NCBI RefSeq assembly: GCF_964194025.1
Contig: NC_134471.1
Coordinates: forward strand, 25,358,001-25,422,000
Direction of reading: 5' to 3'
From: Convolutriloba macropyga
Taxonomy: Eukaryota
DNA length: 64,000 nt
In this document: positions 8,813-64,000 of the stretch, piece after piece
Position numbering within the stretch: the first letter of the stretch is position 1
How the letters are laid out: every line of letters begins with the position of its first letter
Notes under the pieces: model-generated
Told to the model about the DNA's origin: nothing
The model's input: the letters and a program-made list of their open reading frames with translations, nothing else
Databases searched by the model: none
Translations under genes and position numbers: made by a program

Positions 8813-9209
8813 GATTTCTAACCAAATCTACTTAGAGGGAAAAATCTACTTATTAGAGGGAAAAATCTACTAATTAGAGGGAAAAATCTACTAATTAGAG
8901 GGAAAAATCTAATTAGAGGGAAAAATCTACTTATTAGAGGGAAAAATCTACTTATTAGAGGGATAAATCTACTTATTAGAGGGAAAAATCTACTTATTAG
9001 AGGGATAAATCTACTTATTAGAGGGAAAAATCTACTTATTAGAGGGAAAAATCTACTTATTAGAGGGAAAAATCTACTTATTAGAGGGATAAATCTACTT
9101 ATTAGAGGGATAGATCATGGCCATCTGAAAATTATGTTTAGAGGTTTTCAAGCGTTTGACGGGTTTTCTACCCCTCTAATAAGTTCATTTTTAACGTTGG
9201 TTAGAAATC
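8813..9209. mobile_element. Foldback-like element with 13-bp TIRs and an internal minisatellite
   Basis: GATTTCTAACCAA (8813-8825) and TTGGTTAGAAATC (9197-9209) are exact inverted repeats. Confidence 0.6.
8824..9110 (+). repeat. Minisatellite, ~14 copies of ~21-bp AAAATCTACTTATTAGAGGGA
   Basis: Head-to-tail repeats, no unique spacers. Confidence 0.95.
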
Positions 9210-42717: not shown

Positions 42718-42836
42718 TCAATTTTCTAAGTAAAAAAACTAATTTCTAAAACAAAACTAATTGGTTGTTGACAGTCATAATCCTTTTCTGCTTAGTACCT
42801 TTTCTTTTCACAACTGTTTTGCCTACTCAAACTACG

Positions 42837-45800
42837 ATGGATCAACAGACAGTCAAGCTGCTGACATACACTGGAAAGGCACAGGACTTTCCAATCTGGA
42901 GCACAAGACTTGTGGCAATGATGCAGACGAAGGGACTCTACAAATCACTACTTGGGACAGAGGAGCAACCCAATGAGCCTGCACCACTAGCCAATGGGGC
43001 GATCAATGATAAAAAGAAGAACCACAATGTGCTGAGGGATGCATATGAGAAAGAAGTTGCAGACATCAAGGAGAAACGGAACAATGTGTGGTGCCATCTG
43101 GCACTGACTTTAGATGCAACAACCCTCATGCTGATGAGACATGACTGTGTGGGAGATGACGGCGTCGGAGATGGGGCAAAGGCTTGGAATCTTTTGCAAG
43201 AGAGATTTCAGAGTGTGAAGACGACGACAGTGGTGACTTTGGTGGCACAGCTTGCTCGACTAGAGCTCGAGGATGCTCAGGATTTGGATAGCTTCTTCAT
43301 CAAAGGACAGGAGTTCCTCACAAGGCTACAAGAAGCAGGCGAAGCAGTCTCAGAGACCCTCTTCAGCGCCTTGGTCCTCAATGGTCTGCCAATGAGGTAT
43401 GAAAGTTTTGTTATAGAGGAAAACTTTAACCCGGCAACGAACTTCACAGAGTTGAGGAAAAGCTGCAGAACTTCCATGAGAGCACAGCACAGAAGCACAA
43501 GGGGACAAAGTGGCTCAGTGGCACTGGCACTGAAGCGTGACTTCAAGAAGGGACCCAGGAAAGGAAACTGCTTTGTGTGTTGGATCCCTGGACACTTTGC
43601 CAAGGACTGCAGGAGGAAGGAAACAGCACAATGCAGCAAATGTGGTGAGAAAGCTCACCTAGACAGGGCATGCAAGAGACAAAGAGATGGAGGCATACAT
43701 GAGTCAGTGGCAATGGGTCTAACATTGGCTTCACCAGACGAGGAATACTGGGCAGCTATTACCCAGTGGAAGACAGCAGGCATGCTAGCGGACAGTGGTT
43801 GTACAGATCACATAGTGACGAACATCGATGCGTTCCTATGCATTGTGCCCATTCAATCAGTGCTCAGAAATCCCAACGGATAGGCTTCCAGAGTGGTGGG
43901 CAGAGGCTTTGTGAGGATCAGCATACCCTCAAACAAAGGGGAAATCCAATGCGAACTCAAAAATTTTTTGTGTGTGCCGGACTACTCTTCAAACCTCTTA
44001 TCAGTCTCAAGATGCACGGAGTTGGTACATAGTTTCACCTTCGTGAAAGGAAATAGCTGCATGAAACTCCAGAAGGGAACTCGGGTAAAACTAAAACATG
44101 AAAATATTTTGCATTACTTACCCTGCAGCGTTCTAGAATTCAAGATGAGTTCTCACAGCGTGTAACTTGACAATGCAAGGAAGTGGCACAGACAATTAGG
44201 TCATTTGAATCAAGCGGATGTGGTCAGGAATGCACCAAAAACAGTGGGGGAACTCGATGATGTATGTAATATGTGCGCATTGGCCAAGATCACAACGACC
44301 CCTGTACCACGATTGGCAGAGACCCAAGCAGAAGAGAAGCTGGAGAGTGTGTTCACAGATGTGATGGGACCTTTCAGAGTAGAGTCACTGTCAGGGTTTC
44401 GGTTTTGCATTGTGTTTGCAGACCAGTACACAAAGTCTGTGTTTGTGGATTTACATAAGGCAAAGAGGGAAGCACCGGCCAGCCTGAAGAAGTTGGTTCT
44501 CAGTGTGGGGACGCCCATGAACTTGAAACAAGACAATGCGAAGGAGTTTCTCTCAGGGCAGTTCAAGATGTACTGTTTAGATGCAGGCATTCTACAGGAG
44601 AAGACTATACGAGAGACGACACAATAGAATGGGTTAGCTGAGAGGCGCAACAGGGCACTGCTGGAGATGGCAAGAAGCTTGCTCATTAACTCGGGTCTTC
44701 CCAAGACGATGTGGGGGCAGCAATTCTCCGTGCAACAAGGATCAGGAACTTGGTTGTGAGACGAGGAGAAGAAAAATGCCCAGCGGAGCTGATGCGAGGT
44801 ACAAAACCTAAGCTTTCATTTAGTAAACTATCTATTTTTGGTTGCACAGTCTTCATGAGGAAGCGGGACAGAGATGTCAGCAAACTTGAATGCAAGACAC
44901 TGGAAGGAAAAATTGTGGGTTACACTGAAGGAGACAACGGATACCTGTTGTACGTACCCAACACACGCAATGTTGTGGCAGTCCGAGATGTGATCATCAA
45001 GGAGTCCGAAGTGGGCTCAATCCCTGACAACACAGAGACGCCCGACCTATTAGATGAGGGGTCACAGCAACTGGGGATCTGGCACCCAGATGATGGTCAT
45101 CAAGACGATGGCAACAAAGAGGAGCAGGGCACATCTACTGCAATAAAAAAGGAGTGGCATGATGCAGAGAGCGTGAACAATCAAGAAACGACACTGAGAC
45201 GAGATGCCTCAGATGTTGATAAAGCGGCACTGGATGAAAAATCTACTGCAACAAGAGGGAGTCTCAGAGACTCAGAAGGAGTAATTGGAAGACAGTGAAA
45301 CGGAGGTCTTCTCACAGACTCCTTAAAGGCTCACAGGCTTCTTTGAAGAGGCACTGGAGCAAGTGGAAGGGCAGAGCCCAGACGGGGAACACGAGCAAGG
45401 AATGTGCCGCAATTTTTTGGAGAATTCAGGACCCATCTTGCTGTGACTGAGGGAGACTATGTGGAACCCAAACTAGTCTACAAAGCCAAGCAAGGTGACG
45501 ATTGGGACCAGTGGCAACGGGCAATGAATGACGGGGTCAAGTTACTCCAAGACAACGATTCTTGGAACCTAGTGAGACCACCCACAGACAGGGACGACAT
45601 ACCGGGAAAATGTGTCTACATAGTGAAATTGCGACCCAGTGGTCATGTGGACAAATACAAAGCACGCTATGTGGCAAAAGGTTTCAAAAAGGTGGAAGGA
45701 ATGGACTACTTTGAAACTTTTGCGCCCACCTGTAAGCCAGAGACATTCAGGATTCTACTTCAACTATCAGCGAAGCAGGGCTATGTGATGCACCAGTTTG

Positions 45801-47035
45801 ATGTCAAGTCGACTTTCCTGCACTCACCAATGGAGGAAAAAGTGTATCTGGAACAGTCACAGGAGTTTCTAAAACAAGGATCAGATGGGGAGAACTTAGT
45901 ATGCCGACTGAAGAAATCAATTTATGGTTTGAATTAGGCAGCTAACAACTGGTATAAGGAACTGGCAAATTTCCTACTGAGACAGGGTTTCACCAGAAGC
46001 AGGAATCACCATTGCTTGTTCGCAAGAGCAGAGACAGAGGGTCACATTTTCATCTTCGTCTGGGTTGACGACATCATAGTGGCATCAAGAAGCATGACAG
46101 TGATCTCCGATGTCAAAAAACCACTCGAAGCAACATTTCACATAGAAGACAGAGGAAGATTACACTGGTTTTGGGGTCTAAGAATCAGACGAGAAGAGGG
46201 CAAAGTCACAGTCGACCAAGAACGCTACGTAGAAACAATGCTTGAGTGTTTTTAAATGGATCAATGCAAACCCTCAAGAACTCCAGTTGATTTGAATTTG
46301 AAACTTCAGACAACACAGAACGGAAACAAAGAAGTGGACCAGAGGATCTACAGAAGCTTGGTTGGGTCACTTCTGTATCTGGCCAAACAGACAAGGCCAG
46401 ACATCATGTTGACAGTCAACATTCTGTCCAGATACATGAATGCACCTACCAATCAACACTGGATGTGCGGAAAAAGACTTCTGCGATATCTTCAAGGTTC
46501 AAAAAGTTTAAAACTTACTTACACAGAAGAACCTAGTTATGATCTAGTGCGCGAAAGTGATACAGAGTGGTCTGGGGACGTGAACGACAAAGAAATCAAC
46601 GACGGCTACTACTTCCAGCTCAACGGACGTGGCGCAGCACTCAGCTGCGGTGTCAAGAAGCAGGCCACAGTTGCTCTTTCTTCATCAGAAGCAGAATATC
46701 AGGGCATGGCAGCAGCAGTTCAAGAAGCGTTGTATCTGAAACAACTTCTGGAGGATTTTGGCATCCAACAGAAACATCCAATAGCAATTGGAGAGGACAA
46801 CCAGAGTTGTATTAAATTGTGCCAAAATCCAGTCATGCACAAGAGGAGCAAACACATTGAGACAAAATTTCACTTCATTCGTGACAAGACGGAAGATGGG
46901 ACTATTTCAATTACTTACGTTACTACTGGCAAAATGGCAGCCGACATCTTCACGAAATCTTTACCCGTATCGACGGTGGAACCATTCAGAACTGTTTTGA
47001 TGGGAACAGACTCTACGCAATCAGCTCAAGTCTGA
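42837..47035 (+). pseudogene. Copia gag-pol polyprotein with several stops and frameshifts
   Basis: Two CCHC knuckles (CFVCWIPGHFAKDC, CSKCGEKAHLDRAC), protease DSGCTDH, WHRQLGH..CxxC, integrase DVMGP..QDNAKEF, RT YKARYVAKGF/WVDDII, RNase H SSSEAEY/EDNQS/ADIFTK. Confidence 0.93.
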
Positions 47036-47043
47036 AGGGGGGT

Positions 47044-47898
47044 TGTTACGCACTGATTTTTAAAGGTTGACTTTATGGTGTTATTGAGGTAAATATTCGA
47101 AGCAAATAGTTAGCAAAATTGACATTTTATATGGACTTATTTAGTGTTTCACAGTGCAATTTTTAGCAGATAAATTTTGAATAAAATTAGCTAGTAATAG
47201 CTTTTTATTGAGCGGTTCAGATGCGTGATATATCCACTAGTTTGCCTTGTATTTTAAAGTTTTGTTAATAAAGGTTTCGGATCTAATGAATTTGACTCAA
47301 ACTTAGAGTTTTTAGAGAGATATTCCAGTTCAATTTTTAATTATTTGAGCAATAATTATTTAATAACTTTAGCAAAAATTTTCTCAAGTTTTATAAGATG
47401 TTAGGCAACTTATTGTCAGGCTGGTTCTCCGGTGTTCTGCTGACAGTGGGTTCCGCAGGACTGTGTCCTGAGTTGTATTGGTCCTTCGCAAATATTTACT
47501 GATTTTCAAGCTGGGCAATTTCCGGCTTTTGTACGTCTCTTGATGTTTGTTAAGTACATATACAAGTTCCGTATTAGCACCTACTTTATCAGAATAATTA
47601 CTTCACCAAGTACATAATCTCTCACAAAGTTATTTACTGATTATGTGAATTTATCATCAAGAAATTCAAAAAAGTAAATATTGAGGCTTTTAGGCACTTA
47701 ATATGTTTGCTATTAAACTGTCACTCTGCGGTTGTTTTTCGTAAACATAAACAAATTAGAGGTTACAGGCCTAGATGGAAATACTGGCTATATATGGCCT
47801 TGAAACTAACTGAATACTAATTGAAATAAAGCACCTAATTATGGATATTTTAAGGAATATCATCACGTAACTATGAGGGACGAAATAGGGGCGTGACA
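47044..47898 (-). repeat. 3' LTR of the Gypsy element (~855 bp)
   Basis: Termini TGTTACGC (47044) and GCGTGACA (47898) form a 7/8 inverted repeat with TG...CA; lies downstream of env; no similarity to the copia 5' LTR; partner LTR not in window. Confidence 0.7.
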
Positions 47899-48487
47899 CT
47901 ACCGGACTTTATGAAAATTTTCCATGAAAATTTTGGGAAAAAACTGGGTTTTACAATTCTTCTATAAAACATATAATCTGCATCAGTATGAGGATATAAA
48001 CATATTTTTGTTGGAGCCACCCAAATTAAGTTTTCTTAGAAAAGAGTTTTGAAACGAAAGCTTTTAAGTTAAAGACAATTAAAGAAGTTAAGAGAAATAA
48101 AGTTTAAGTTAAGACAAATGGAGATAAAGTTTAAAGTAAGGAAAATTAAGACAAGATTAAGAGCTTTGAAGGAACATTACAGATGTGAAAGTCTGCTAAT
48201 TTCAAAGTAAAGAGTGAAGACATAAGGTAAGGTTAAGTTTAAGAGAATAACGGGAATTAGCACTGGAAATAATCATGGTTATTTCTTTGAAAAATGGCTC
48301 TAAACTTTTAGAAGGAGGATAAGAAGAATGCTGGTTACATGAAGGGTTTAAAGCACTGGTTGATTTCTGGAAGTGAACAGTTATTTCGAGTATATAAAGC
48401 ACTGATTAGTTTTACTTAGTGAATGAATGGGTACTTAATCTGTGAAAAGAACAATACTTATCGAACTTTTATAAGATTTTCAAGAGC

Positions 48488-50622
48488 TTAAAGTATACTC
48501 TCGTCTCGGGGTTGAGCTTGATAGTCCAATTCGTCATCTGTGTTAACTCGATCCATGGTGTTGAGTGACATGGTAGAAGTTGCAGGCATGGAATTTCGTC
48601 GTTGTCGTTTGAGGGTTCCAAGTTCTTCTGGGGAGATGACTGTTGGCGGTTGCTTTAGTTGTTTGGCTAAAGTAGTGACTACATCTGCTTTCAGATGTTT
48701 GGGTACGGAAACTACTGGGTTTAGCGGTACATTGTTTCCGTTAAGGTTCATGGAATTTGGTACCATTCGTCGTACAAAAGCTACTTTATGGTATAAGAAC
48801 ATGAAGAGAATATGTAGGGCTAGATTTCCGACAAAGACAATGATTGTTAGCGAGAGAGAAAGTTTGATTGGAACGTAAGATTCAAGTTTGTCGATTAGTG
48901 CTGGCTTAAATGACTTCATTTCAGTAGTAATTTTTTTGCTACGGCATCTAGTGATTCTGTTGATAACTTTCGATTCGAGTAAATAAATTCTGTTTTAACT
49001 TTCTTTAATAAATCGAGATTTGCTCCAGTGCTTGATTCATACTTTGGAAGTTCGTTTATGTTCGGAACTGAGTCAATTAAATGTGCAAGTGGATCTGGTA
49101 ATTTTACATTAATTCTCGTTGCTGGAAGGTACTGACAGCTTTGTAAATCAGCTCGAATTTTAATGTGGTCACTGAACATTGTATGTCCACATTTTAATGT
49201 GATTAAACAGATATTACAACCTTTATGAGGAACATTGGTGTGTCGGCCATTTTCATCCGTACCAATCTTACTAAGGGTATAATCACTTGAAGCTGATGTT
49301 AGGAGCCAAATTCCGTATCCAAGGTTCTGTGCTCGTTCAGGGTTGGGTAACACAACCTTCTCTGTGTCACATACTTTCAATGCTGAGATTGAGTGGTGAA
49401 ACTTGAGGGTTGCTAGACACGAGGAGAATCAAAGGTGGGTTTCCATTGTCTCATGACAGATTCGGTATCGTGGCTTTCCAAGACAGTTGTCATACTGAGC
49501 TTTCGTCAGTACTGTAGTTTCCATCTGTCCTTCTGAGATTGCTAAGTACTCTCCCTCTATCACGTATCGTAAGGCATCTACAGAGTCCTTCTGAGGCATA
49601 GGGATTACAATTGCACGATAAACTTCAGACACTGTCTGGCTAGAGGCTAGGGGAATGGCTAGTGTCAGTAAAAGTCCTTCTTCAACTGTCGAAATCTCTT
49701 GTACTAATTTCGCATCGTAGTACGAAAGTATGTCAGTCATGGGTATTGCCAATGTTAGACGATCTGGGGCGTTCTTTTGGCTATCATGGACTGCATCAAG
49801 GATCTTAATTAAAGATTTTCGAGGTACTAAAGAGATTGGAAGGCGTTTGTCAAGTAGAGTAGGTATAGCATTGATAACATTAATTCGAAAAGAATATAAT
49901 GCTGCTCTGTAACTTTTGATATCTGCATAAAGAGTAAGAAGTAATGAGGCTGCTGTGTCAAAGTTAAAGTTCACTTGTTGCCGTGATGATTGAATTTCCA
50001 TACAGGCTGCTAGTGCAGTCAGATTATGGTCTACAATTGCAAATTGTTCCTCAACTAGTTTCCAGTTTCTGTTCTGGTTTTCTTGCATTTCGTTTTGAAC
50101 TTTATAAACCTTTGCAAGTTCGTCAGCAACTAGGAAAAACTTCTCATCGGTTTGTGCGCCGATTTCCATGACATAGTCGTTAAGGCAATTAAAACTGTTA
50201 GCTAATCGATCGATGTTTTCAGCGTTTTGAGATGTGCGCTGACAAAATCCGAAAATTCCTGTTATTCCACCGCATCCTGCGCTGCTCATTGCTATTCCTG
50301 GGCCGAAAAGTCCAATCCAGCGACTGCGGCTGCTATAGCAAGCGGGGCGGCTCTTTTTGTAACTTGACGTCATGTTACAAAACTCTGACTTTGTTATCCA
50401 TTTATCTGAGAGTTCGTTAAGTAGAGTCTCTACTTGTTGTCGTATCGTGAAATTATAACGAGGAAACGGGACTAAAAATTCCACGTTAATGAACTTCTCA
50501 GTAATTAATATCTTCCCTTCCTTATGGAAAATTATTCCTTGAGTCAGAGCTGCTTCCGTGTTAATCGGAGTCTCAAAACTGGGGCCGAAAAGTACGAGAC
50601 TTAACACAATTGTAAGCAACAT
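48488..50622 (-). pseudogene. env: env-like class I fusion glycoprotein (~710 codons; one in-frame stop at 49429, one frameshift at ~48930)
   Basis: Signal peptide MLLTIVLSLVLFG, basic site RSR followed by Gly-rich hydrophobic WIGLFGPGIAMSSAGCGGITGIFG, heptad repeats, Cys-rich region, TM LSLTIIVFVGNLALHILFMFLY, cytoplasmic tail. Confidence 0.85.
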
Positions 50623-51824
50623 TTTCGTATTTCAATAATAACAACTATGTTTCAGGACAATCTTCTACTGATGTGGCTCTTCTAAGTGTTTCAACTGGTT
50701 CTATTTGGTCTTCTGGTGTTTATTTGTTCATTTATGTGCGTTACTCGGGCTTCTAGTTCTAGCTTTCTCAATATGGCACTTGTTTATGTGATGTTTACTC
50801 ATTTCAGGTGTACTCTACTTTTGGGTCATGTGTGCTAATGTGTGTATTTATTGATATTACTACTAAATATGGAGTTTAAACATGTTAAAGTGTAGTTATG
50901 TGGTTGAATGGTGGGTGTGTGATGATGGGGATAGTGGTTGGGGGGTCGAATTGTGCAGTGTTTACATGTTTTTTCGAGTTTTTTCAGATTATATTGCCCC
51001 CAATATTGCACCATGTGCTTTAATATCACTGTTTTTGCCCTAACTATTGGATGTTGTACGAATGGGACCAGGTTTGTCGGAAGGAACGCTGTTCACTGGT
51101 CAAGATTGATTCATCCAAAGTGTAATATGACGGCAGTAGATAATATATTTATTGACAAGGAGAGTGGTGGTGGGAGTGAGTGGTGGATTATTATTATATT
51201 AGTAATCTTTTTATTATTATCATTAGTATCTGTGTTGTTGTGAGTGTGGGCAAATCGGAGGAGGAAAAGGAGGAAGTGAAAAGATCAGAGGAAGCTGTCG
51301 GGGAAGATTCAGTGTGACTTATTATTTATTTTTATTATAATTAATTATATTAATTGTTGTAATATTGTGTAATATTAATATTAATATGACTGCATAGGGA
51401 CTATTGGAACTGACTTTTATATTGTAGTTGTAGGTGTAATATTGACTGGTGCTACTAATATACTTCTCACATGGTGCTAGTAATATGGTAGTAATTAGTA
51501 TATGTCAAATTTGTTTTGTGAGGGAATAAGCGCGTAAGTAGGGGATAAAAGGAAGAATTTGGAGGTAAAAGAATAAGTAAATATTAGTGAAGGGTGTAAT
51601 TTTGTGTTCAGAGCGGCGTTGTGTGTTTTGCGGCATGTGTTTTTAGCGATTAGTGACCGTAGTGGCATGGTATTTAAACGACCTTGGCATTTATTGCATA
51701 ATTTGTGCTGTTTGTGTGTTTTCATTCCTGTGATTGTTCATTTTTGACTTAACACTTTAACTTTCTGCTTGCTTAATAACTAGTTTGGCTCAATATTTGA
51801 ATTTTCAGATAGTTATTGCTAGTC

Positions 51825-53307
51825 ATGGATGTTGCCCAGTATGAGGATTTTCTGACTTTCTTGCGGAGCAAGTCGTTGTCTCAATCGGAATGGATGTATC
51901 CATCATTTGTTCGGACATCTGAGGAGCGACGAGCTTATCGGGACAAAGCGGAGCACATGGTACTGGGAACAAAGAATGTGGGGACTTCAGAGTTGGCTGT
52001 AAATCGGGAGGTGTTGATGTATAAGGTGGAAGTGAAGGTGGGTAGCGAAACGCAAGTTCAGGAGAAGGAAATTCCAACTCAGCAGATGGTGTCTCAGGAG
52101 TTGGCTTCGCTTCATGTCGGGTTCAGTGCTTCTGCAAAGCACATTATTCGTGTGAGGTCACAGGTCGATCGTCTGAAAGCTGCTAGGTTCTTCTTTCCAC
52201 GGTCGATGGGTGGATTGGAGGCCGCTGTTGAGAGGTAATTGCATATGTTTATAATATTCATTTATATTTCTATTTGTTTTTCTTTAGTTTGTTACATGTA
52301 TTATTAATTGTGGTGTGGTGTATGCTAATTGTTTAGAGCACGTCGTGAATGTGTGTCAAGTTTCGTGAAGAAGATGCACGGCAAAGAGGTGCATCGCACT
52401 TTTTTCCGTGCAAATCTTCGTGCAAACTTGTGTGCCGAATTGGGGTACGAGTTTACAATGACATTTATGCTGAGTATGTGGACGTAGTGTCATTTAAAAC
52501 TCCAAAGTTGCCTGGTGCGGCTGGTGTGAGGGCCGAAGTTGGTGGTCTGTTTGCTCTCAGTGCTCTGTACTACACTTTAACTGGTCGGAAGTCAGGTATT
52601 TGTTGTATTTTATCGCAGTTTTCAGGAAGTTTAGGGCTTTAATTCACTTTTAATCGATTTATTACAGACAAGAAGGTTCCCAAGCATAATGTTCATGCTC
52701 TACGCTTGGCTATTGTGGCCAAAATGCGTTCGCCTGTGTTCTCTGAGCTTGTGAAAGACCAGTTAGGGTACTTCGTGTCGGAGTATGAGATTGCTGAGAG
52801 TGAAGATAATGGGTCGTTGGTCGAGTTCTGGGTAAATTATACCTTCAATACGTGGTAATTCTGGTATATGCATGTGTAGATATGTATGATTGGAGATTTT
52901 GCTGTTTAGTTTGTCGGTATGGCATATTTCTTCGGATGCAATGTCAATACCTATTGGCAGTATACTGAGGAAATGGGGGCGGCTGGGTGTGTTACCGGCA
53001 TTCTATCAATGCTAAGACCAGCGCTCCTGCTGTACTGATCCAGTGCATCGGGAAATTCATCAACAATGAGTATCGGTACCATTGTGAGCCAATCGTAGAC
53101 TTTCCAAAGTGAGTATTTAACTGCTTTTGTGAAGATTTATCGTGTTTTTCGTGTAAATTTGAGGCTTTTTGATCATTATAATGACATTTAAACAGGTTGG
53201 ACGATGCTGAGCGGTACGTGACTCGTTCTACTAGGACAAGGGGTCAGTCCGCTCAGAGTACTAGTGGTGGTGGTACCGTAGCTGAGGATAGCGCCGGTGA
53301 GAAATGA
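51825..53307 (+). pseudogene. Antisense spliced gene inside the Gypsy element: YPYY/H2C2 integrase-type N-terminus plus OTU-like protease domain (~381 aa reconstructed); exons 51825-52234, 52337-52595, 52668-52831, 52910-53108, 53196-53307
   Basis: Four short AT-rich GT-AG introns (102, 72, 78, 87 nt; the third is least certain); exons total 1144 nt and restore to frame with two 1-nt insertions (~52452, ~52971); motifs YP..ERRAYR..LMY..LH..H..FFP..CVSS and GGLFALSALYYTLTG..HALRLAIVAKM..E.MAYFF..W.CY..HCEPI. Confidence 0.65.
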
Positions 53308-53870
53308 CTAGTGTCGGTGCAATTGTATTCATCATGTAGTTTAGTTTCATCTATAGGTGAGTTTTTACTTATTATTTGGCAATTGTAGCTTTGATAGTTG
53401 GTTTTTACTGTTAGAACTAGGAGCTGTGGTGTGTATGAGAGTGTGGTAACATTTTAATTGCGGTATGTGACTTTAAAATGACATATTGTTGAAAGTGAGT
53501 ATTTGATGACATAACTAATGTCTGAGCATTAACCTTAATTTACTTGTAAATTATTAATCATAGACAGGTTCCAATGGTTCTAGATACTTGTCCTGGTTGT
53601 TAGCAGCACTTGTGTCTAATTTGAACTGGTTTAGAAGAGTATTTGGTACTAATTTTCACAAGTAATTTTTTCGTAATTTTGGCCATTTTTCCGCATCAGG
53701 GCTGGTGTTACATATATGTGAACTTTTCGATTTTTATTAAACTTTGGGCAAATTTTTTGGCTTAGCCCACTCAGTAGACATCGGTGGGGAATAACTATGC
53801 TATAAATTCAGGTTTTTTGGCACTTTTTGGTGAACTTTTTCACTAATGTATTAAAAACCGAAAAATGCGA

Positions 53871-56055
53871 AAAATTGAGGGCTCCAGCATCACTCAATTT
53901 TTAAATTGCTCCAATCGGACTCAAAATTGGCAGGTCGCTTCAAGGGCTCAAAAAATCCGGCAGCGCAAATATTTGGCGTAATTTGAGCATTTTTCGCAAA
54001 GTTATGACTGTTTTTGTGATCTGAACCTGGCTATTTTTGGATCATGAAATTTCGGTCTGAATAAGTCGTCACTGTTCATACATTATCGGTATTGAATGGT
54101 TAAAATGGTACTGTCTGTGCTTGGTACTAGTGTATATTACTGAATTATAGGGTTTGAAGCTATTTATCGGGTCAGAACATTGATTTTTTTTTATCCAAAA
54201 TGCTAATTTTCAGGCATGATTTTTCCACTAATTGAGCTTCTTCGAGACATGTGTCAGTCTGGTGATTCTCTAGTGGCCTAAATCAGGTGCTAATTGTTAG
54301 TACTGATATCTGTGGTTTTCAGGGGTAGCATTTTGGTAGCCTTGAAGTTGAATAACTTGTGTTTTATGCCGGTCTTTCTGTGAAATTTACTAGATTTTTA
54401 CTTGTGAAGCATCATGTTTTGTGCATAAGTTGACATAGATTGGAGAAAATTGATTTTTGACAGTAATTGTTGATCATACTAGTGAGTACTATGTTAGTAG
54501 CGACTATTGGTTGCAGTTTGGTTCATGATTTGGCTTTACTATGTGGAGTTTTTTTACTTTAGAATTTTGGGTTAAATTTGATCAGATATGTGCAATTTTC
54601 GATTTTTTTCCTTTTTTTCAACATTTATGAATTTCTATGCAATTGTATGGGTTGATTAGGCTTAGACAATTACTAGGGAGACTGAATATTGGATATGGGC
54701 TCAAAATTCGGCTATTTGATACTATTTTTCTCGTCTGAATCTGGCTCTATTTTGTCGAATTTGAGAAGAGTCTGAAAGGCTTCAGTTTTTTACTTTTATT
54801 TCAACATTTTACTGAACAATTTTCAATATTTTTGATATGGGCGTGTACAGCTTGAGCATGCGGATGTTTTAAGCTAATAATATCGGAGCTAATAACAATT
54901 TTTGATCAATATTTCGGATCTTAGGAACTTGTTCGTAAATTTTCAAAAAGTCTCCAAAATTGAGTGGCCCAGCGTCACTCAATTTTTTAAATGCTTCGAT
55001 TGAGCTCAAAAATGATGGATCGCTTTATCGGCTCAAAAAACCCTGCAGCGCAAAAATTTGGGCAGTTTCAACAATTTTTTCACTAGTTATAACGTTTTTG
55101 CTGCAGTGAACCTGGGTTTTTTGAAAAGGCTCAGATAGAGGATAGGTTATTGGCTATGAGGCTATGAAAACTTGTTCAAAATGATTGATATTGCTATGGT
55201 TGGATTGCTCATGAATAGTGCTAACTGAATTAACAATAAATTTAGGCATATTCAGGTATTAAGAAGCATTTTGATCACTTTAGTTGGAAATTATACTTAA
55301 ATTTTTGTGATTTTCGTTATGTTGGCAGTCTTTTCTCAGCTTGTATTGGCACTAGGGGCTGGAAGTGCATATTCTGAGAGTTATATTCTGAAGTGCATAT
55401 TCTGAAGTGCATATTCTGAGATGTGGGCGTGCTGGTGGTATGGTTAATTGTTGTCAGAAGTTAATAATATTGACTCTAGCTGGAAAATAACTGAATTTTT
55501 TCTGACAAAATTGTGGCAATTTCAGAGCTTATTTGGGTTTAAGTCTTCATGGTTGATACTGGGATGAAATGGGATTGGTTTTTATGGTACTACAAGGCTA
55601 GTGATGGGTTGCACTAGGGTTGTAGTGGGTATAGGTGGCTTTTATCGGTTCAGGTGGAGAATAAAATGACAAAATTTTTGAAGCGGAGGATTGAAGCAGA
55701 AGCGCAATTTTGGTTTTTTCATCATTTTTCAACATATGCTTGGAAACATTGGGTTTTAATCCTTGTCTGAGTTTGTACCATATAGGTGGCTGTTGGGAGT
55801 AGCTGCTGGAGGCATTTGTGACAGTTTTTGGCATATTTTTGGGGGTTTTTTGTGGGAGTTATCATTGAATTCGAGCGGATTCGAAAAGTGTCAAAAATTG
55901 AGGGCTCCAGCGTCACTCGATTTTTAAAGTTCTCCAAATCGCTTCGAAATTTGCATGTCGGTTCCTCGGCTTGAAAAGTGCTGCAGCGCAAAAAAATCGG
56001 GATGATCGGGGCTTTTTTCACAATTTTATTACTATTTTTCTGAAGTGAACCTAGG
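53871..56055. repeat. Three dispersed ~160-bp hairpin modules (53871-54030, 54956-55115, 55893-56055) within the Gypsy element
   Basis: Each starts AAAATTGAG..CCAGC.TCACTC.ATTTT, contains GCAGCGCAAA and ends TGAACCT. Confidence 0.8.
55362..55420. repeat. Short tandem repeat, ~4 x AAGTGCATATTCTG
   Basis: Direct reading. Confidence 0.85.
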
Positions 56056-56339
56056 ACTTCCGGAAGGGTCAATTTTAGGCTAAGTTTTTGGTACTTTAAA
56101 CGGGTCAAATGGGGTCAATAATAGCGGGAATTGCTTCTAATAGATAAGGGCTTTTCAGAACAATGGGTTAATCCAGGTTCAGACAAGTAGTTCTGGAGAT
56201 ATAACAAAATAACTAGGATTTGAGGTCATAATTTTTCGAATTTTTTGCGATTTTTGGACTTTAGGGCTAACTTGCTAAGGATTGTTGGGCTTTTGGGTCA
56301 AATGAAGGGTGCTGCTAGACTGTACTGGGTCTTTACATG

Positions 56340-56789
56340 CTAATGGATATAGATGTTTATGGGTAGAGGGTCGAAGACTTGACATATAAGCTCAAAAGTG
56401 ATGTTAAAATCCAGTTTATCATAGCCACTGGCGAGTTTTGGAAGACTTAAGTGTGAAGTTCCTGCATCTATTACTATTTCTCTCAGTTCATAGAGACTTG
56501 CTAATACGGATTTGTGTGTGGGTTTGTGGTAGTATCTAAATTTGGTGACTAAACTGAAGATATAACGTTCAGAAATGGGGTCGAAGTAAATTAAAACTGA
56601 GCCAACATCAGGTGGATATCTAAGTCTAATTGCACTTGGGGCTGCTGGGTACCAGCTTTTGACTTGTCGGGCTAATCCCTTTGTCATTGCAAGGTCTGCT
56701 GATATACAGTGTGCAAAAGAGTGTGGAGAGTATAAGATATCTGTTGGTGAACTTAGATATGTTGCATTTATTTCTTGACTAAAATGATT
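56340..56789 (-). CDS. TARG1/OARD1-type macrodomain, probably the C-terminal extension of Pol
   Basis: Frame is open upstream of the listed ORF: DILYSPHSFAHCISADLAMTKGLA...RYIFSLVTK...KPT...LSLPKLASGYDKL...VF; compare human OARD1 SLAHCISED.MGAGIA / YYLITK / MPRIGCGLDRL. Confidence 0.88.
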   Translation of the reverse strand, partial: NHFSQEINATYLSSPTDILYSPHSFAHCISADLAMTKGLARQVKSWYPAAPSAIRLRYPPDVGSVLIYFDPISERYIFSLVTKFRYYHKPTHKSVLASLYELREIVIDAGTSHLSLPKLASGYDKLDFNITFELICQVFDPLPINIYIH

Positions 56790-57109
56790 TAATTTTTTGG
56801 TTTGAAGAGCCTGGTGAAGAGTTTTTTGTTTGAGATCAGGTTACTGGTTTGTTTGCTGAACTGCTGGACTTTTTCCCTGAAAATTTTGCTATACTTGCTC
56901 TAACTTGATCTAGTTTTGTCTCTCTACTTGGTGTATTTGACTGTTTTGCTGCTTGTGCTGATGCTTTTATTGCTTCGCGTCTTTCTTCTTGTTCGTCTGG
57001 CACGTGCATTTTTTGGTCTAGGACTGCCTGATCTTCTAACTTGGTTGATTAGGTAAGGGTTTGATCTATCTTTATCATGCAACTATATTTGTCTGCTCAC
57101 TTTGAACCC

Positions 57110-59100
57110 TTAGTTATTTTTCTTCTGTTGGTATTCTGGTGATTTAAAGGCACTTATCTCTGGTTTTCGTTTAGTGTGATAAGGTCGGGCACTTATTTTT
57201 CTATCAGTTAACGCAAATTGTTCTTCGTGTGTTTCTAGAGGCGACTCACTATCGAATGGTTCTATTGACGGTGGCTGGTGAGCTGGTAGAAACATTTCGT
57301 CATCTGATGAGGATGATACGAGAGGAACACGATTTTCTGGTTCTTGCTGTCGAATTTCATCAGCAATTAGTGGATCAACCGGTATTCTTGCTATTTGATC
57401 AGCATCTAGGTTCTGGTCAGCTAGGTTTTCGTCTGAACTACTATTTTCTTCAAATAAGTTAGGAATTGCTTCATCTGAGCTTGAAGAATCAAATACTGGA
57501 AAATGTACTGGAGCTGTTCGTGGTCTAACTGCTGGTGCTACTACCCTTGGTGGGGCCGGTGGTGCTGCTGGAAGTGCTGCTAATGCTGTTCCTGCTAAGG
57601 GTTTACCTAATGGAACATTTTTAGTCACTTTTACTGGGTCCTGCTTCACTTTTGTAGCTTGTTTTATCTCCCTTTCTTGTTCCTTTATCAATTCCGGGAT
57701 ATGTTTATCGAATAGGTATGGCTCCATATGTTGTTTCCTAGATGGATCAGGTTGAAATTTTGCAGGGTTGATAGTCTCGAGGTCTTCAGGAGTTTCACTT
57801 GGTTGAATTGGTTTCAATCTTATTCGATGAACAAACTGGGTGTAATTCATATTTACTTTTCGAATGATGTAATTAGAGTCAGTAAGGGCTTTTTCCACTC
57901 TATAAAGCGGTAGCCATTTCTGAACTTGGGAAGCTATTACCATTGATTGCTCTAGTAGCTTAGGACTCAATAGTAAACAGAATGATTTTTCCGGAATCGG
58001 TTTTGCTGAAGCTTTTTGATCATAATACTTTTTGTACTTCAGGTAAGCAGTCGTTAGTTTTTCTTTGTTTTCTCCAAACTTTTGCATCATGGCGTCTTGC
58101 AGTTCATTAACAAAATCAGAATATACTGCTACTGCATCCATTACTTTTCTGGAGAACCTAATGTCAAGGGGCTTTATAGGTTCTCTGCCATGGAATAAAA
58201 TTGAAGGACAACAATTTGTCGCTGAATGATATGAAGTATTATGAATAAAAGTTGCAAGAGGAACATATTTGTACCAGTCTTTGCATTGTTCCTCAGTATT
58301 GAGCTTTAATATTCGTTTTAGTGGTCCGTGAGATTGTTCTACTGCTCCAATAGTTTGAGGGTGCTTTAGTGAAGCGTGCTTCAACTTTACTTCTAATAAA
58401 CTTGCTCATTCTGACATTAATTCTGAAGTAAAATTTGTTCCTAAGTCACTAAGTATCGTTTGAGGAATGTAGCTGTCTTGGAAGAACACCTTTACTAGTT
58501 CTCGGGATACTGTGTCAGCGTATCCATTCGTTAATGGAACTGCGAATAGGTACTTTGTGAAAACATCTATTCCACTCAGAACATACTTATATTGTGTTGA
58601 CTTTAGGGGGCCTATTAAATCAATTTGTAGCATACCTCCTGGATATGATTTTAGAGAACTGACTGGTTGTACCTTTGGTGTGATGTGGTTTTTTGGTACT
58701 CTGTTAAAATGAAGACAAGTGAGGCAGTTTTTGATGAAACTAATGAAATGTTCAGTGAAACCTGGGTAATAGAATCGCTTTCCAAATTCCTGAATTGTTG
58801 CTTTAATGCCTAAATGACCTGCTGTTTGTGAATTATGGAGCCTGTATATACTCTCTTTCCACAAAGTACTTTTCCAGTATCGCCATAAAAATTCCGGTAT
58901 GAGACATTTCCTTCAAGAATTAATCTGTTGAAATGTTTGTAATACTTTTTTAAATTGGTTGAAGCATACTTTAAGTCTAATTGTTGATTGTTTTGTTGAA
59001 TCCAGCCTATTACTGTTCTAATGTCTGCATCTTTTTGCTGCTCTTCTGTTAAATTGAGACTAATTAAGTTGTCTGTAAGGTCTGGGAATTCATCCAATGG
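57110..59100 (-). pseudogene. Gypsy integrase with a long Pro/Ala/acidic C-terminal linker (frameshifted)
   Basis: H..GHLG..CLTC, QIDLIGP, SDLGTNF, HPQTIGAVE. Confidence 0.9.
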
Positions 59101-59165
59101 ATTTGGGTACTCAATTGAATTTTATTTCTTGTTTTCTTTTAAGTTTAAATAGCCCTTGAATTTCT

Positions 59166-61055
59166 CTACTGGGAAATTAGTTTTTTGTATTCATCATAGA
59201 AGCCGAGTTTTTTAAGCACATCAAGTTCGTCACTATTAATTTCATCACTAAAGTTTTCAGTATCAAGTAATACATTCAGTTCAATATCAGGATTTTGTGC
59301 TTCTGTATCAATTTCTATTTCTTTAACTGGAATTCTATCTGTTAATTTTAAAGACATTGTTGCTGTTTTGTCATTCTCCATTCGGGAGAAGAAATCTGCG
59401 GCGTAGTTAGCGCGTCCAGGAATGTGAGCAATTACTATATTAAATGCGAGTATTCTGTCTAAACAATTCCAAAGAGATGGCGGTATTACTTTTGACTGGA
59501 AGAATTGTGTGAGGCTTTTGTTGTCAGTGAATATAATTACTTGTTTACTTGATCCCCAAATGTACTGCAAAAAGTAGTCCAGCGCGTAGTACAAAGCTAG
59601 GAACTCTTTGTAATAGATTGAAAACTTTAATTGCGTTGCATTAAACAAATGCGATCCAAACGATACGGGAGCGTATATTTTCTTTTCTTTCTTTCCAGTT
59701 TCATTTACGTAGTCTTCCACCATTAGTACAAAACCTGCACCGTGGAAATTAGCGGCACAAAGAATTACATACTGTAGGCCTGGTTTTGGCAATCGCAATG
59801 TTACATTCGTTGCTTCCATTAGATCCTTCTTTATTACTTCTAATGCTTTTACGTGTTCTTCGGTAGTTTCTATCACTGCATCCTTCTTCAGGAGCTTGTA
59901 AAATGACATTAGTGTCTCACCTAGATTAGGTATGTAATTGCGGAAGAATTGAGTGAAGCCGATTAAACGCTTTACTTGTTTTGTCGTTTTTGGCATTTTG
60001 AATTTATCAAGAAATTTCGTTATTTTTGCTTTTTCTGGTGATATTCCTTCTGCACTGATGTTATTTCCAAGGAATTTCATTGTATCTGTTGCTATTTCAC
60101 ACTTTTCGGGCGACAGTTTTAGACCGGATTGACGTATACAGATTATTATTTCTCGCAAAGAGGGTACCAATTGTTCAAAAATTGTTACTGCATTTCCGAT
60201 ATCATCCATAAACTGGGTACAATTTCCTGAAGCTAAGCATGGGTCCAAGTAATGTCTAATAAATGAGCAAAATCCAGTTACTGACTTATTCAATCCTTGT
60301 GCCAGACATTTATAGGCATAAGTTCGCGAAGCAAAGTTAAAAGCTAGCAGTTGCACTGATGCATCGTCTGCCATTTGCACGCAGTGATATGATTGAGAAC
60401 AATCAAGTTTTGTGAATAATTTTTTCCCGGCAAAGTAGTTTATTGCATCACTCCTGTTCGAAATTGGGAAATTTGTTTTCACATAATCGTTTTTCAGCAA
60501 ATGATTTACTTTTCTCAAGTCAATTAATAGTCTAAGTCTTCCTGAATTTTTCCGTTGAGCGAAAAGTGGACTACTATATCTTGATTGAGACAAAGTTGTT
60601 ATCAGTCCGTAGTATTGCATTAATGCTGGTTCTACTTGTAACTCATTTCTCAAGTGGACAGGCGTTGGAGGGCCTTGTTCGTAAATTGGTATGTTTCTTT
60701 CTGGAGTTAGATTTATTTTTAAATCTGTATTATATCCAACGTCAAATCTGTGTTTCGCAAAGATATCACTGAATTCGACTAATAGTTCACCTACTACTGC
60801 TTTTTGCTCATCATTGAGGGCTGATTTGTCCCGCGGGAATTTGCTCAAAAAGATTATTTTGTCCTGATGGTTACCCTTTGGATCTAATTTCTCCATTTCT
60901 TGCAGTTTTAGCAGTTGCTCAAAGCTTTCTCTCTGCAAGGGCGACAAATTTGTCGGATCTGGGCACGTTTCAGGCGTTGGGAACCACAATTTTTCATATT
61001 CCGGGGCCGGTTTTGCGTATCTGTGGCGTATCTGTGGCCATATTCTTTTTGGCAT
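59166..61055 (-). CDS. pol: Gypsy reverse transcriptase and RNase H
   Basis: SSPLF..RLLIDLRKVN, KLDCSQSYH, QGL, FMDD, FLG; RNase H KEFLAL..TDNKSL. Confidence 0.93.
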   Translation of the reverse strand: MPKRIWPQIRHRYAKPAPEYEKLWFPTPETCPDPTNLSPLQRESFEQLLKLQEMEKLDPKGNHQDKIIFLSKFPRDKSALNDEQKAVVGELLVEFSDIFAKHRFDVGYNTDLKINLTPERNIPIYEQGPPTPVHLRNELQVEPALMQYYGLITTLSQSRYSSPLFAQRKNSGRLRLLIDLRKVNHLLKNDYVKTNFPISNRSDAINYFAGKKLFTKLDCSQSYHCVQMADDASVQLLAFNFASRTYAYKCLAQGLNKSVTGFCSFIRHYLDPCLASGNCTQFMDDIGNAVTIFEQLVPSLREIIICIRQSGLKLSPEKCEIATDTMKFLGNNISAEGISPEKAKITKFLDKFKMPKTTKQVKRLIGFTQFFRNYIPNLGETLMSFYKLLKKDAVIETTEEHVKALEVIKKDLMEATNVTLRLPKPGLQYVILCAANFHGAGFVLMVEDYVNETGKKEKKIYAPVSFGSHLFNATQLKFSIYYKEFLALYYALDYFLQYIWGSSKQVIIFTDNKSLTQFFQSKVIPPSLWNCLDRILAFNIVIAHIPGRANYAADFFSRMENDKTATMSLKLTDRIPVKEIEIDTEAQNPDIELNVLLDTENFSDEINSDELDVLKKLGFYDEYKKLISQ

Positions 61056-61457
61056 ATCTGTGACTTGAATTAATTGATTTATTTCTGTTTAATAATTTTC
61101 ACTCATTTTTGCTACATTTATTAATTGAGGATCTACTTCTAACAACTTTTCTGCTTGATCAGACGCTAAGAACAAGAATTTGGCTATTTCTTCGCCTTTA
61201 TTTATGGTAATTGGGTGATCAGTAAAGTTCAGGACGTAGATGTAGAGAATATTATTTTCAGCAACTTTACTTAATGAAGACGTTAATATTACTTCGCTAT
61301 CATTTTCAAAGATTTCATTTGGAATTATTACCCCACAAAGGTCAGTGAAAGATTATAGTTTATCGTAAAGCTTGCATTCTAATACTGCTTGTTGATTTGG
61401 TTGTAAGACTTGTTTTTTCTGTGTATAAACTCCAAATTTTTTGCGTTTTACAACTCT

Positions 61458-61860
61458 TCAGGGTTGCTTTTCTGGCTTTATTTCATTTATTTGTAGAGTT
61501 TGATCAGGGAATTTAATGTAACTTTGTCCTGGGCAGATGCTAACTTTGTGTTTAACGAAGAAGGGGTTGCCTAATATTACAGGAGTTGTGACAATTAAAA
61601 CAAGGAAATCTTCTGTAAATGTTTGTGTGCCCAATTTAAATGTAACTTTAATTGCTTTGTCAATTTTAACTATATTTCCGTTTGCCATTTTTACTTTATC
61701 TAGATCAGGTTTTTCTATTTCTGCTATTGAATTGATATTTGTAATAATAAGCTCCTTGTAAAACTCACGACTCATCACGTTTGCAAATGCTCCTGTATCA
61801 ATTAGTGCGCGTCTTTCTAATTCTCCATTAAATTTAACTTTAACATAGGATAATGTTCTG
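61458..61860 (-). pseudogene. Gypsy aspartic protease
   Basis: RALIDTGA (DTG at ~61791-61799) and VILGNPF. Confidence 0.85.
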
Positions 61861-62112
61861 CCTAAAAGTGGGACAACACTGAATAATGTGGTGTTGGCTT
61901 TGGTGTGGATTGAGGTACTTGTGTTGGGAGTTGCACAGATTTATTCACTTTACATTTATTATTATTACTTTTGCGTTTTCTACGCTTTTTGTTACTTTTA
62001 TTGTAAACTGGCTCTATTACTTCATCTAAACTAGGGCTATACGTGCTTTCGTTATAATGTTTAACTGAGTTTTTATAATTTTTATTTGGTTTTTTAAAGT
62101 TGGGTGGCTTTA

Positions 62113-63366
62113 TTAGTTTTTTTGTTGACTAAATGGAAAATTCATACCTCTCATATTTCTATTTTGAGGAATACTTGCACGATTGAACTGGTTTGCTTGC
62201 TGACTACCATATCGGTTTTGTGATGGGCTATCATAAACTATTCCCTGTCTAAGAAGGATTTGAGGGGTATTTTTTGTTGGGAACCGATAAATTTGTCTAT
62301 TAACATCAGCTGGTTGAACTAATGGGGGGTTATCTGAAGGTTCAGTCCAATAATTCCGAGTTTGTGGCTGTTCATTATAATGATATGGTCTAGGAGCGTT
62401 AAATTGTGGTCTAAACTCTCGGTAATTATTAGAACGGGGGGATTATTGTTGCTGGGGCCGATAGTTTTGCCGAAATTGACGATAATTGGGCTGATATTGA
62501 CGGTAATTTTGTCGATAATTCTGATATTGAGGGCGGAAATTTTTTCTATAACTTTGTTTGTAGACTTGTTGTGGGTAATGTGGTGTGAAAATGTTTGCTG
62601 GGCCTAATTCTGTTTGCTCAGTTTTAGGTGCTGTTCTCTGTTCAAGCTTCTGCTCAAGTTCTTTTTGATTATTTGAAATAACAGTTATTGCTTTTAACAT
62701 TTTATCAGTGTTTGTTTCAGTTATTTCATTAAATCCGTCATCAAAGTACTCTTCTCTGTTGCACATCTCCCTAATTGCAATCTGTTGGCTAGCTAAGGTG
62801 CATAATTGATCAATGGTATCTGTATCTGGCCTTTCTAAGAGCTTAGACTTAAGCCAATTTGGCATAGACTTAATAAAGAAGTGCTTTATTTGTTCGTTTT
62901 TTCTATTTTCTGACATCTGAAGGGCAGATTCTCTTGCTGCCGTCTCTCTTTTGAATCTACGGGCTTTAGGTTCACCTGCTCCTGCTGGCGCTACTACTAT
63001 GTAATGTGCTGGATATGCTTTATTGGCTTCAGTTCTTAACTTTACTAAGAAATTTTTTACAGTGTCTGTTTTTGGATTAAACTTTTGATTCTCTAACTTT
63101 ATGACTCTCATCTCTCTCAAGTCATCCTGCGTGAATCTATTTCTTAGAGCTGTTATACTGTCTTCGAAGACTAGTCTGGTAGCCTCTGGTAGAGTTAAGA
63201 AGTATCGTAAAGCGTCTCCTTTTAAATGTAACTGTAAAAAGTTCGCTTGTTGCACGTTTGCGATTGCTGCTACTCCGATTGCACCTGTTATTAGTTGTTC
63301 GAACTCGTTAAAATTGTCCCTTTCTGATCCGGAAAAAGGCGTGATGTTGATTTGCGCGTGTGCCAT
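62113..63366 (-). pseudogene. gag: Gypsy gag (one frameshift at ~62443) with a Q/N/R/Y/P-rich C-terminus
   Basis: PFSG..F..FE...LHLKGDALRYF..L.NRF capsid-type pattern; reading continues in another frame to TAA at 62113. Confidence 0.85.
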
Positions 63367-64000
63367 TTTGCTTTTTACCCGATTAGATTACATACTTTTC
63401 GTTAAATCAGTCTTACTTTCGTTCTAAAGTATTAAATAGCACACTTAACTTAACTCAATGGAGAAATTAAGGGGTTTTAAGAGATGAAAACAGTTAACTG
63501 AATAGCACAAGAATATCAGAAAAGAAACTACTGAAACCCTTCGTTTAGAGAATAATAAAGACTTATATCGTTGAAGCCGTATGGGCCGCCGAAGTCTCAC
63601 CTCTTAAGAGTGCCCATTAGTCTAGGAAAAATTGTGGGGACCACGACCGCACAGGCCTTGTGGAAGCTGCACTCAGATAGGCAACAGCATAATGACCGAA
63701 GTCACTGTTTGATTCATCAACCTCCGGAGCTGGGCTGGGAAATAAAATATAATTGTTTTATTATTCTGTTTAAAATTTTGTTTTGCCCTCTTTTAGTTAA
63801 TGTTTAAGTGATGGTTTCAGTAATTTAGCTTATCCTGATGTTATCTGATAATCAGTAATTATGTTTTCAAGGTTAATGTCTCTGTCAGATTGAAGTTTGT
63901 TGCAAATAAGGCCAAATTTGCGAACTTTTTGATTTAGACTTTTTGCTGTCCAATAAATTGCAACACGTTTATCATCTTTATCTAGCACATAAATGACAAT

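Follow-up and report, generated by a model that had tools for sequence, protein, structure and literature searches.

The analysed stretch (the window) comprises 64,000 nucleotides of the Convolutriloba macropyga genome (GCF_964194025.1, contig NC_134471.1, positions 25,358,001 to 25,422,000) and contains an env-bearing Ty3/Gypsy element of 18,367 bp, located on the minus strand at 47044..64000 and continuing past the window end. Its 3′ long terminal repeat (LTR; 47044..47898, minus strand), 855 bp in length and bounded by TG...CA, has a partner 5′ LTR just outside the window, at 25422556-25423410 of the contig (window-equivalent 64556-65410, minus strand). The two LTRs differ at 31 of 855 bases (96.4% identity, 3.6% divergence), and a 5-bp target duplication, GGGGT, surrounds the element. 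A preliminary description made from the window alone had placed an element of more than 17 kb here; it is present and larger than supposed, and both the 5′ LTR and the target duplication that the description expected beyond 64 kb were found. It had also allowed that pol and env might derive from different elements. Since the paired LTRs and the GGGGT duplication enclose both, they are parts of one element.

The order of features along the element agrees with the preliminary description: a gag-like open reading frame (ORF), protease, reverse transcriptase (RT), RNase H, integrase, macrodomain, a 3-kb non-coding block, an antisense spliced gene, env and LTR. The paired TG...CA LTRs with a target duplication and the protease-RT-RNase H-integrase order identify a Ty3/Gypsy element. 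From an LTR search of the genome, in which 40 of 924 candidates were scored, 10 other paired elements with LTRs and target duplications were retrieved; their LTR divergence is 0.5-3.1%, versus 3.6% in the window copy. A primer site beginning with TGG adjoins the 5′ LTR, and this start is shared by 10 of the 11 paired elements; no matching tRNA was found among those sampled. The tract preceding the 3′ LTR (47899-47915, minus strand) is kept among copies and is not a pure polypurine run.

The pol region, encoded on the minus strand, contains an aspartic protease (61458..61940; Pfam Asp_protease_2, E 5e-8), reverse transcriptase with RNase H (59166..61088; RVT_1, E 3e-18; RT_RNaseH, E 7e-14) and an integrase composed of a zinc finger, core and C-terminal motif (57110..58912; Integrase_H2C2, E 1e-12; rve, E 5e-8). 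Upstream of these lie ORF pieces (62113..63387, minus strand) that match no Pfam gag family and are called gag-like by position only.

Following a long low-complexity linker, Pol ends in a TARG1/OARD1-like macrodomain (56340..56840, minus strand). Its best PDB match is human TARG1 (2lgr, E 4.6e-14); the top matches are all TARG1, and no viral macrodomain is found among the 19 PDB matches with E up to 1. The class proposed in the preliminary description thus stands, but the macrodomain is not a separate gene: in other copies its reading frame continues that of the integrase tail, making it the C-terminal domain of Pol. The catalytic dyad of TARG1 consists of Lys84 and an acidic residue 125, written as Glu125 in the text of PMC7050489 and present as Asp in the PDB sequence of TARG1. 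Equivalents of the Lys and Asp are kept in 33/33 copies; homology and the dyad together assign the domain, at the sequence level, to the TARG1/ALC1-like class. In these copies dN/dS (omega) was 0.06 for shared variants and 1.56 for singletons; here and below, omega was computed relative to a natural copy, with the transition weight kept constant, and the contrast between shared and singleton variants, rather than the exact value, is the result. The macrodomain is under purifying selection. Eleven of 53 related Pol proteins also end in a macrodomain, although a word search for longer proteins with this domain returned no matches. At least two of these 11 belong to the C. macropyga genome, their RT being identical to that of its families, and so do not constitute independent evidence from other species.

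On the opposite strand lies a predicted five-exon gene (51825..53307, plus strand) for a protein of about 381 aa, composed of a zinc-finger-like N-terminal part and an OTU-like protease domain. Its exons (51825-52234, 52337-52595, 52668-52831, 52910-53108 and 53196-53307) have a GC content of 0.46-0.55, versus 0.23-0.32 for the four GT-AG introns. An exon-1 search of the genome (150 of 183 candidates scored) provided 43 full copies for comparison; its 40 stretches are the best exon-1 matches, so that copies with the gene are over-represented. In 41-43 of the 43 copies the splice sites are conserved, in agreement with the splicing proposed earlier, and introns diverge 2-5 times more than exons (0.08-0.15 versus 0.03-0.04). 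Intron 2 measures 72 nt in 21 copies and 73 nt in 20, so the reading frame needs splicing. All four introns are multiples of three in the window copy, which is a coincidence, as their lengths vary between copies. Exon frames are uninterrupted in 30/43 copies. Omega amounts to 0.24 for shared variants and 1.07 for singletons (p 2e-12; for the OTU-like part, 0.19 and 1.39); on the opposite strand of exon 1, it is low only in the codon-aligned shadow frame, which has stops. The antisense gene is therefore, like the macrodomain, an accessory gene under purifying selection, a point on which the preliminary description had called for dN/dS estimates. Four read runs gave even cover and no joints at the predicted introns among those listed, a result that carries no information on splicing.

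No homologue of the antisense protein outside this genome was detected by a word search at E 0.001. A full search gave 29 matches, all of them fragments with 38-98% identity, which are likely to represent the same kind of element. All 20 fetched diverged exon-1 matches adjoin env or other parts of such elements.

The OTU assignment rests on two exon profiles that include diverged families, compared with OTUs of this genome that Pfam recognises. Built from 14 rows, the exon-2 profile finds the Cys loop of Helitron OTUs (91%, E 1.1e-6); built from 13 rows, the exon-4 profile finds their His strand (89%, E 2e-6). The two lie in the correct order, while JmjC control profiles match nothing. A profile of the single family gives a weak match over 117 columns (score 22.4, above 60/60 column shuffles), and single-exon PDB profile searches returned nothing meaningful. 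The catalytic Cys is present in 42/43 copies and 14/14 family rows, the His in 41/43 copies and 12/13 rows. We consider an OTU-like fold highly probable and catalytic activity reasonably probable; on profile evidence the domain would be, at best, a divergent OTU member. In the N-terminal part two His and a Cys-x-x-Cys motif are conserved (His-His...Cys-x-x-Cys), and its match to an H2C2-type integrase zinc-finger profile (91 columns, E 0.015) is not above the best control. The five exons contain no DDE integrase core. A Ginger1-like origin of the gene is a lead only (PMC2836005). The genome also holds long open frames (some 2,500 aa) whose N-terminal part is an OTU domain, several clustered on contig C10 near 43.2-43.6 Mb; the one checked is a Helitron Rep/helicase.

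Genome searches with related Pol and cargo genes revealed sister families in which the slot between macrodomain and env is occupied differently. The comparison covered 59 stretches, each of 10 kb, of which 19 were selected with Pol, 20 with the OTU-like exon and 20 with JmjC. In 27 of them the slot is occupied by an OTU-like gene and in 26 by a JmjC ORF without introns; no stretch has both, and six have neither. The 27:26 ratio is not a frequency, as 40/59 stretches were chosen by similarity to one cargo. Among the 19 Pol-picked stretches, the counts are seven, six, none and six, respectively. Occupancy is thus either OTU-like or JmjC, never both, in the 59 stretches. The cargo lies on the strand opposite to env in 43/43 and to the macrodomain in 45/45 stretches. 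The OTU-like gene keeps its slot and orientation across families at 17-34% identity, and introns shared with two sister families, read by eye, are at the same places and phases.

The antisense JmjC ORFs of the sister families encode about 400 aa and have 105 matches in the genome; for 10/20 JmjC-bearing elements no env was found within 10 kb. In the PDB, the JmjC profile has nine matches, every one of them to PHF8, KDM7 or PHF2 (best E 7e-4). The iron ligands (His-x-Asp/Glu...His) and the cofactor Lys/Thr are kept in 16, 16, 15, 15 and 15 of 16 rows, and the structure model is confident (pLDDT 86). Pfam finds no PHD family in these rows. The JmjC cargo is classed as KDM7/PHF8-like by sequence, with a predicted role as a histone demethylase. 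An RT tree was built in a quick version from 44 rows of relatives (one of the 19 loci lacks an RT, two rows are less than half filled, and no named errantivirus, lokiretrovirus or Odin references are included). In it the sister branch of the window family is a JmjC group, and one JmjC family is nested among families with the OTU-like gene, each with a support of 98. The two cargos interleave, so the tree indicates repeated swaps or differential loss.

The slot also carries a second antisense ORF (51013..51279, plus strand), which was missing from the preliminary description. It would encode a small membrane protein with a Cys-rich ectodomain, an N-glycosylation sequon and one membrane helix, and has a premature stop in the window copy. 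Where found, it lies on the same strand as the enzyme cargo (31/31 stretches). Three Cys, a Gly and a Trp are invariant or nearly so in 15 rows. It matches no known family and no PDB entry, and within the window family it has no clear selection signal (omega 0.58 versus 0.68, not significant).

The env gene (48488..50622, minus strand) is broken in the window copy. In other copies it encodes a signal peptide, a basic cleavage site, a hydrophobic peptide and a membrane anchor, the anatomy of a class I fusion protein. Two of them match Pfam Baculo_F (E 9e-4 and 2.7e-3), both under the curated cut-off, and a PDB profile search gave nothing below E 0.2. Env is likely a class I fusion protein of the F type, and it is under purifying selection (omega 0.13 for shared variants versus 0.94 for singletons; 36 copies).

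Among the 11 LTR-selected elements, env is complete in four, partial in two and missing from five, and the OTU-like gene is complete in five and partial in one. In three env-less copies the two genes were lost together; other copies have env and lack the OTU-like gene, and one env-less copy retains it. Cargo is optional for amplification, because env-less and cargo-less sublineages carry young LTR pairs. Four elements, three of roughly 15.7 kb and the fourth of 7.3 kb, form a subfamily without env; another segment of about 750 bp replaces it, and the OTU-like gene is missing. The segment with env and the antisense gene is tandemly duplicated at G000:C11:44.71-44.73 Mb, with a 5.5-kb period, and at another locus. 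The window copy itself is decayed, as had been noticed earlier: pol and env contain frameshifts and stops, env has 153 bp fewer than another copy, and the antisense gene has two frameshifts and has lost its catalytic Cys.

The 3-kb non-coding block, earlier described as hairpin modules, proved to contain three dispersed 167-bp repeats about 1 kb apart (53871-54037, 54956-55122 and 55894-56060, spanning 53871..56060). They are found in 45/45 copies examined and have slightly fewer shared variants per 100 bp than the spacers (14.4 versus 20.7, p 0.03). Two of the three were folded and did no better than shuffles (z +0.83 and +1.96), so that of the RNA hairpins only a 33-nt imperfect palindrome remains; no Rfam match was found. 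The repeats are likely cis-elements acting as DNA or RNA. In each of the five aligned copies a further splice-donor-like site is found after the antisense gene's stop codon (53196-53360, plus strand), and the antisense transcript may extend by non-coding exons into the repeat block.

A decayed Copia element (42750-47043, plus strand) adjoins the Gypsy element, which inserted at the junction of the Copia polypurine tract and 3′ LTR; the rest of that LTR lies beyond the Gypsy 5′ LTR. Elsewhere in the window are an array of 13 tandem copies of a 21-bp unit (8832-9110) and an ORF piece (8012-8497, minus strand) whose Cys/Gly spacing recalls that of a galactose-binding lectin-like exon.

We propose that the OTU-like gene, like the JmjC gene of the sister families, strips repressive marks and keeps the element active, a role to which we give an even chance. 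The antisense layout of the spliced gene is explained by the copying cycle of retroelements, in which an intron persists through reverse transcription only if it runs counter to the genomic RNA. The cassette would be transcribed from an internal promoter near the start of env. Its OTU-like product might remove ubiquitin from chromatin or element proteins, and the JmjC alternative would demethylate H3K9/H3K27. The macrodomain, situated on the integrase where other Gypsies carry a chromodomain, may act at the integration site by binding ADP-ribose or taking it off. With three predicted eraser activities, one of them KDM7-like, the cargo resembles a kit of chromatin-mark erasers more than a viral antagonist of innate immunity, and a role in countering chromatin silencing is the favoured reading. 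The full picture, in which an enveloped Gypsy clade with an ancient exchangeable antisense slot, holding a spliced deubiquitinase or an H3K9/H3K27 demethylase, and an ADP-ribose eraser on its integrase, encodes its own anti-silencing enzymes, is more tentative and falls somewhat short of an even chance. To our knowledge, element-encoded counter-silencing enzymes are known mainly from plants, as in the orchid AlkB case (PMC9289625). Chromatin counter-silencing by animal retroelements is largely an open question, which a series of families with a deubiquitinase-like or demethylase-like gene in one slot makes testable. Moreover, the persistence of a gene with introns across highly divergent retrotransposon families provides a natural counterpart to the antisense-intron cassette of retrotransposition reporters.

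Several observations weigh against an anti-silencing role. The OTU-like gene is dispensable, being missing from five of the 11 LTR-selected elements, some of which have young LTR pairs; this partly bears out a reservation of the preliminary description, for which copies lacking the 50.7-56.3 kb block would have spoken against its reading. The macrodomain is kept in 10/11. The OTU assignment of the preliminary description is only partly upheld by the two exon profiles: the domain is not recognised by Pfam OTU (PF02338) above the cut-off, a local hidden Markov model from the genome's OTUs scored 0.7 bits, below the best of 1000 shuffles, the Asp that usually stands three positions ahead of the Cys is missing, and the structure model computed from the read-through, introns included, failed (pLDDT 31). 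For the JmjC cargo the match is weak, with Pfam matching 2/16 rows, and numerous members of the JmjC family hydroxylate proteins other than histones. The cargo-based choice of most stretches counts here too. Expression and splicing of the antisense gene, like the enzyme activities, are predicted from the sequence, and OTU and macrodomain activities would suit DNA repair or immunity equally.

The leading rival, which we regard as unlikely, sees the macrodomain and the OTU-like protease as helpers that reverse ADP-ribosylation and ubiquitination at integration breaks, or shield element proteins from degradation, and leave silencing marks untouched. The fusion of the macrodomain to the integrase fits this; TARG1 is described as reversing PARP marks and moving to DNA damage (PMC7050489), an equivalent role has been put forward for the OTU and Ulp1 domains carried by the transposons Ginger1 and Helitron (PMC2836005), and Helitrons of this genome bear OTUs. 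However, neither the replacement of the OTU-like gene by a KDM7-like JmjC nor the separate antisense gene is explained. The preliminary description had drawn a parallel with viral innate-immune antagonists; an infectious env-bearing element would then use the two enzymes, together with the small membrane protein, to counter antiviral signalling through ADP-ribosylation and ubiquitin. Purifying selection on env, the joint loss of env and the OTU-like gene in three copies and the layout of the small glycoprotein gene, like that of viral accessory genes, agree with it. Viral immune-antagonist macrodomains are MacroD-type, whereas the domain on this integrase is TARG1/ALC1-like, with no viral match among the PDB hits. 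The OTU relatives found are transposon-borne, those of Helitrons, and env and the OTU-like gene also occur one without the other. We know of no JmjC cargo in RNA viruses with such antagonists, and a KDM7-like JmjC gene filling the same slot points to chromatin rather than antiviral signalling. The immune parallel is thus not the best reading, and we judge it less probable still than a repair function.

Least probable is that the gene is a passenger, a nested DNA transposon remnant of Ginger1 or Helitron derivation without benefit to the element. Its zinc-finger-like part, OTU and introns recall Ginger1 transposases (PMC2836005), and some sublineages do without it. The strong purifying selection seen in shared variants largely refutes this, and the constant slot and orientation across diverged families, the missing transposase core and the association of all 20 fetched diverged exon-1 matches with env or other element parts also speak against it. 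A role against chromatin silencing ranks ahead of integration-site repair, innate immunity and passenger status, in that order.

Env-bearing Gypsies are widespread in animals, as described for 'ancient errantiviruses' with an F-type env (PMC13524379). The present element resembles these in its gag-pol-env order, LTRs, primer site, weak Baculo_F match and many copies in an animal genome, and differs in its length of 18 kb, its antisense cassette and the macrodomain at the end of Pol, where some of those carry a chromodomain. The main text of that paper does not contain the words macro, OTU, antisense or accessory; its supplements could include these families. Plant Retand/Tat elements likewise possess a long region between pol and 3′ LTR with antisense ORFs and repeats, but they lack env and carry TRP28 cargo, and the words intron, OTU and peptidase are absent from the paper describing them (PMC11963269). 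Large Gypsy elements with captured enzymes include an orchid Gypsy with an AlkB m6A demethylase, a precedent for a Gypsy-borne eraser (PMC9289625), bdelloid elements with an exchangeable third ORF encoding GDSL or DEDDy enzymes (PMC5408684) and planarian Burro (PMC6431247); their enzymes are others, and the accessible accounts describe no antisense spliced gene, OTU or JmjC.

The preliminary description knew of no such combination in an LTR element. The macrodomain by itself has a precedent in the macro domain ORFs of fish epsilon-like endogenous retroviruses (PMC4977317); those are true retroviruses, whereas here a TARG1-class domain is fused to a Gypsy Pol. For a Gypsy element that carries JmjC cargo, or an OTU-like gene that is spliced and antisense, no account turned up in a literature search that lacked most subscription journals and Repbase reports. 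OTU domains as such occur in other mobile elements, namely Ginger1, which has a zinc finger, an OTU and 1-4 introns (PMC2836005), and Helitron/Helentron elements (PMC6431247). Both are DNA transposons, whereas the gene described here, which has neither a DDE core nor a helicase, is cargo inside a retroelement.

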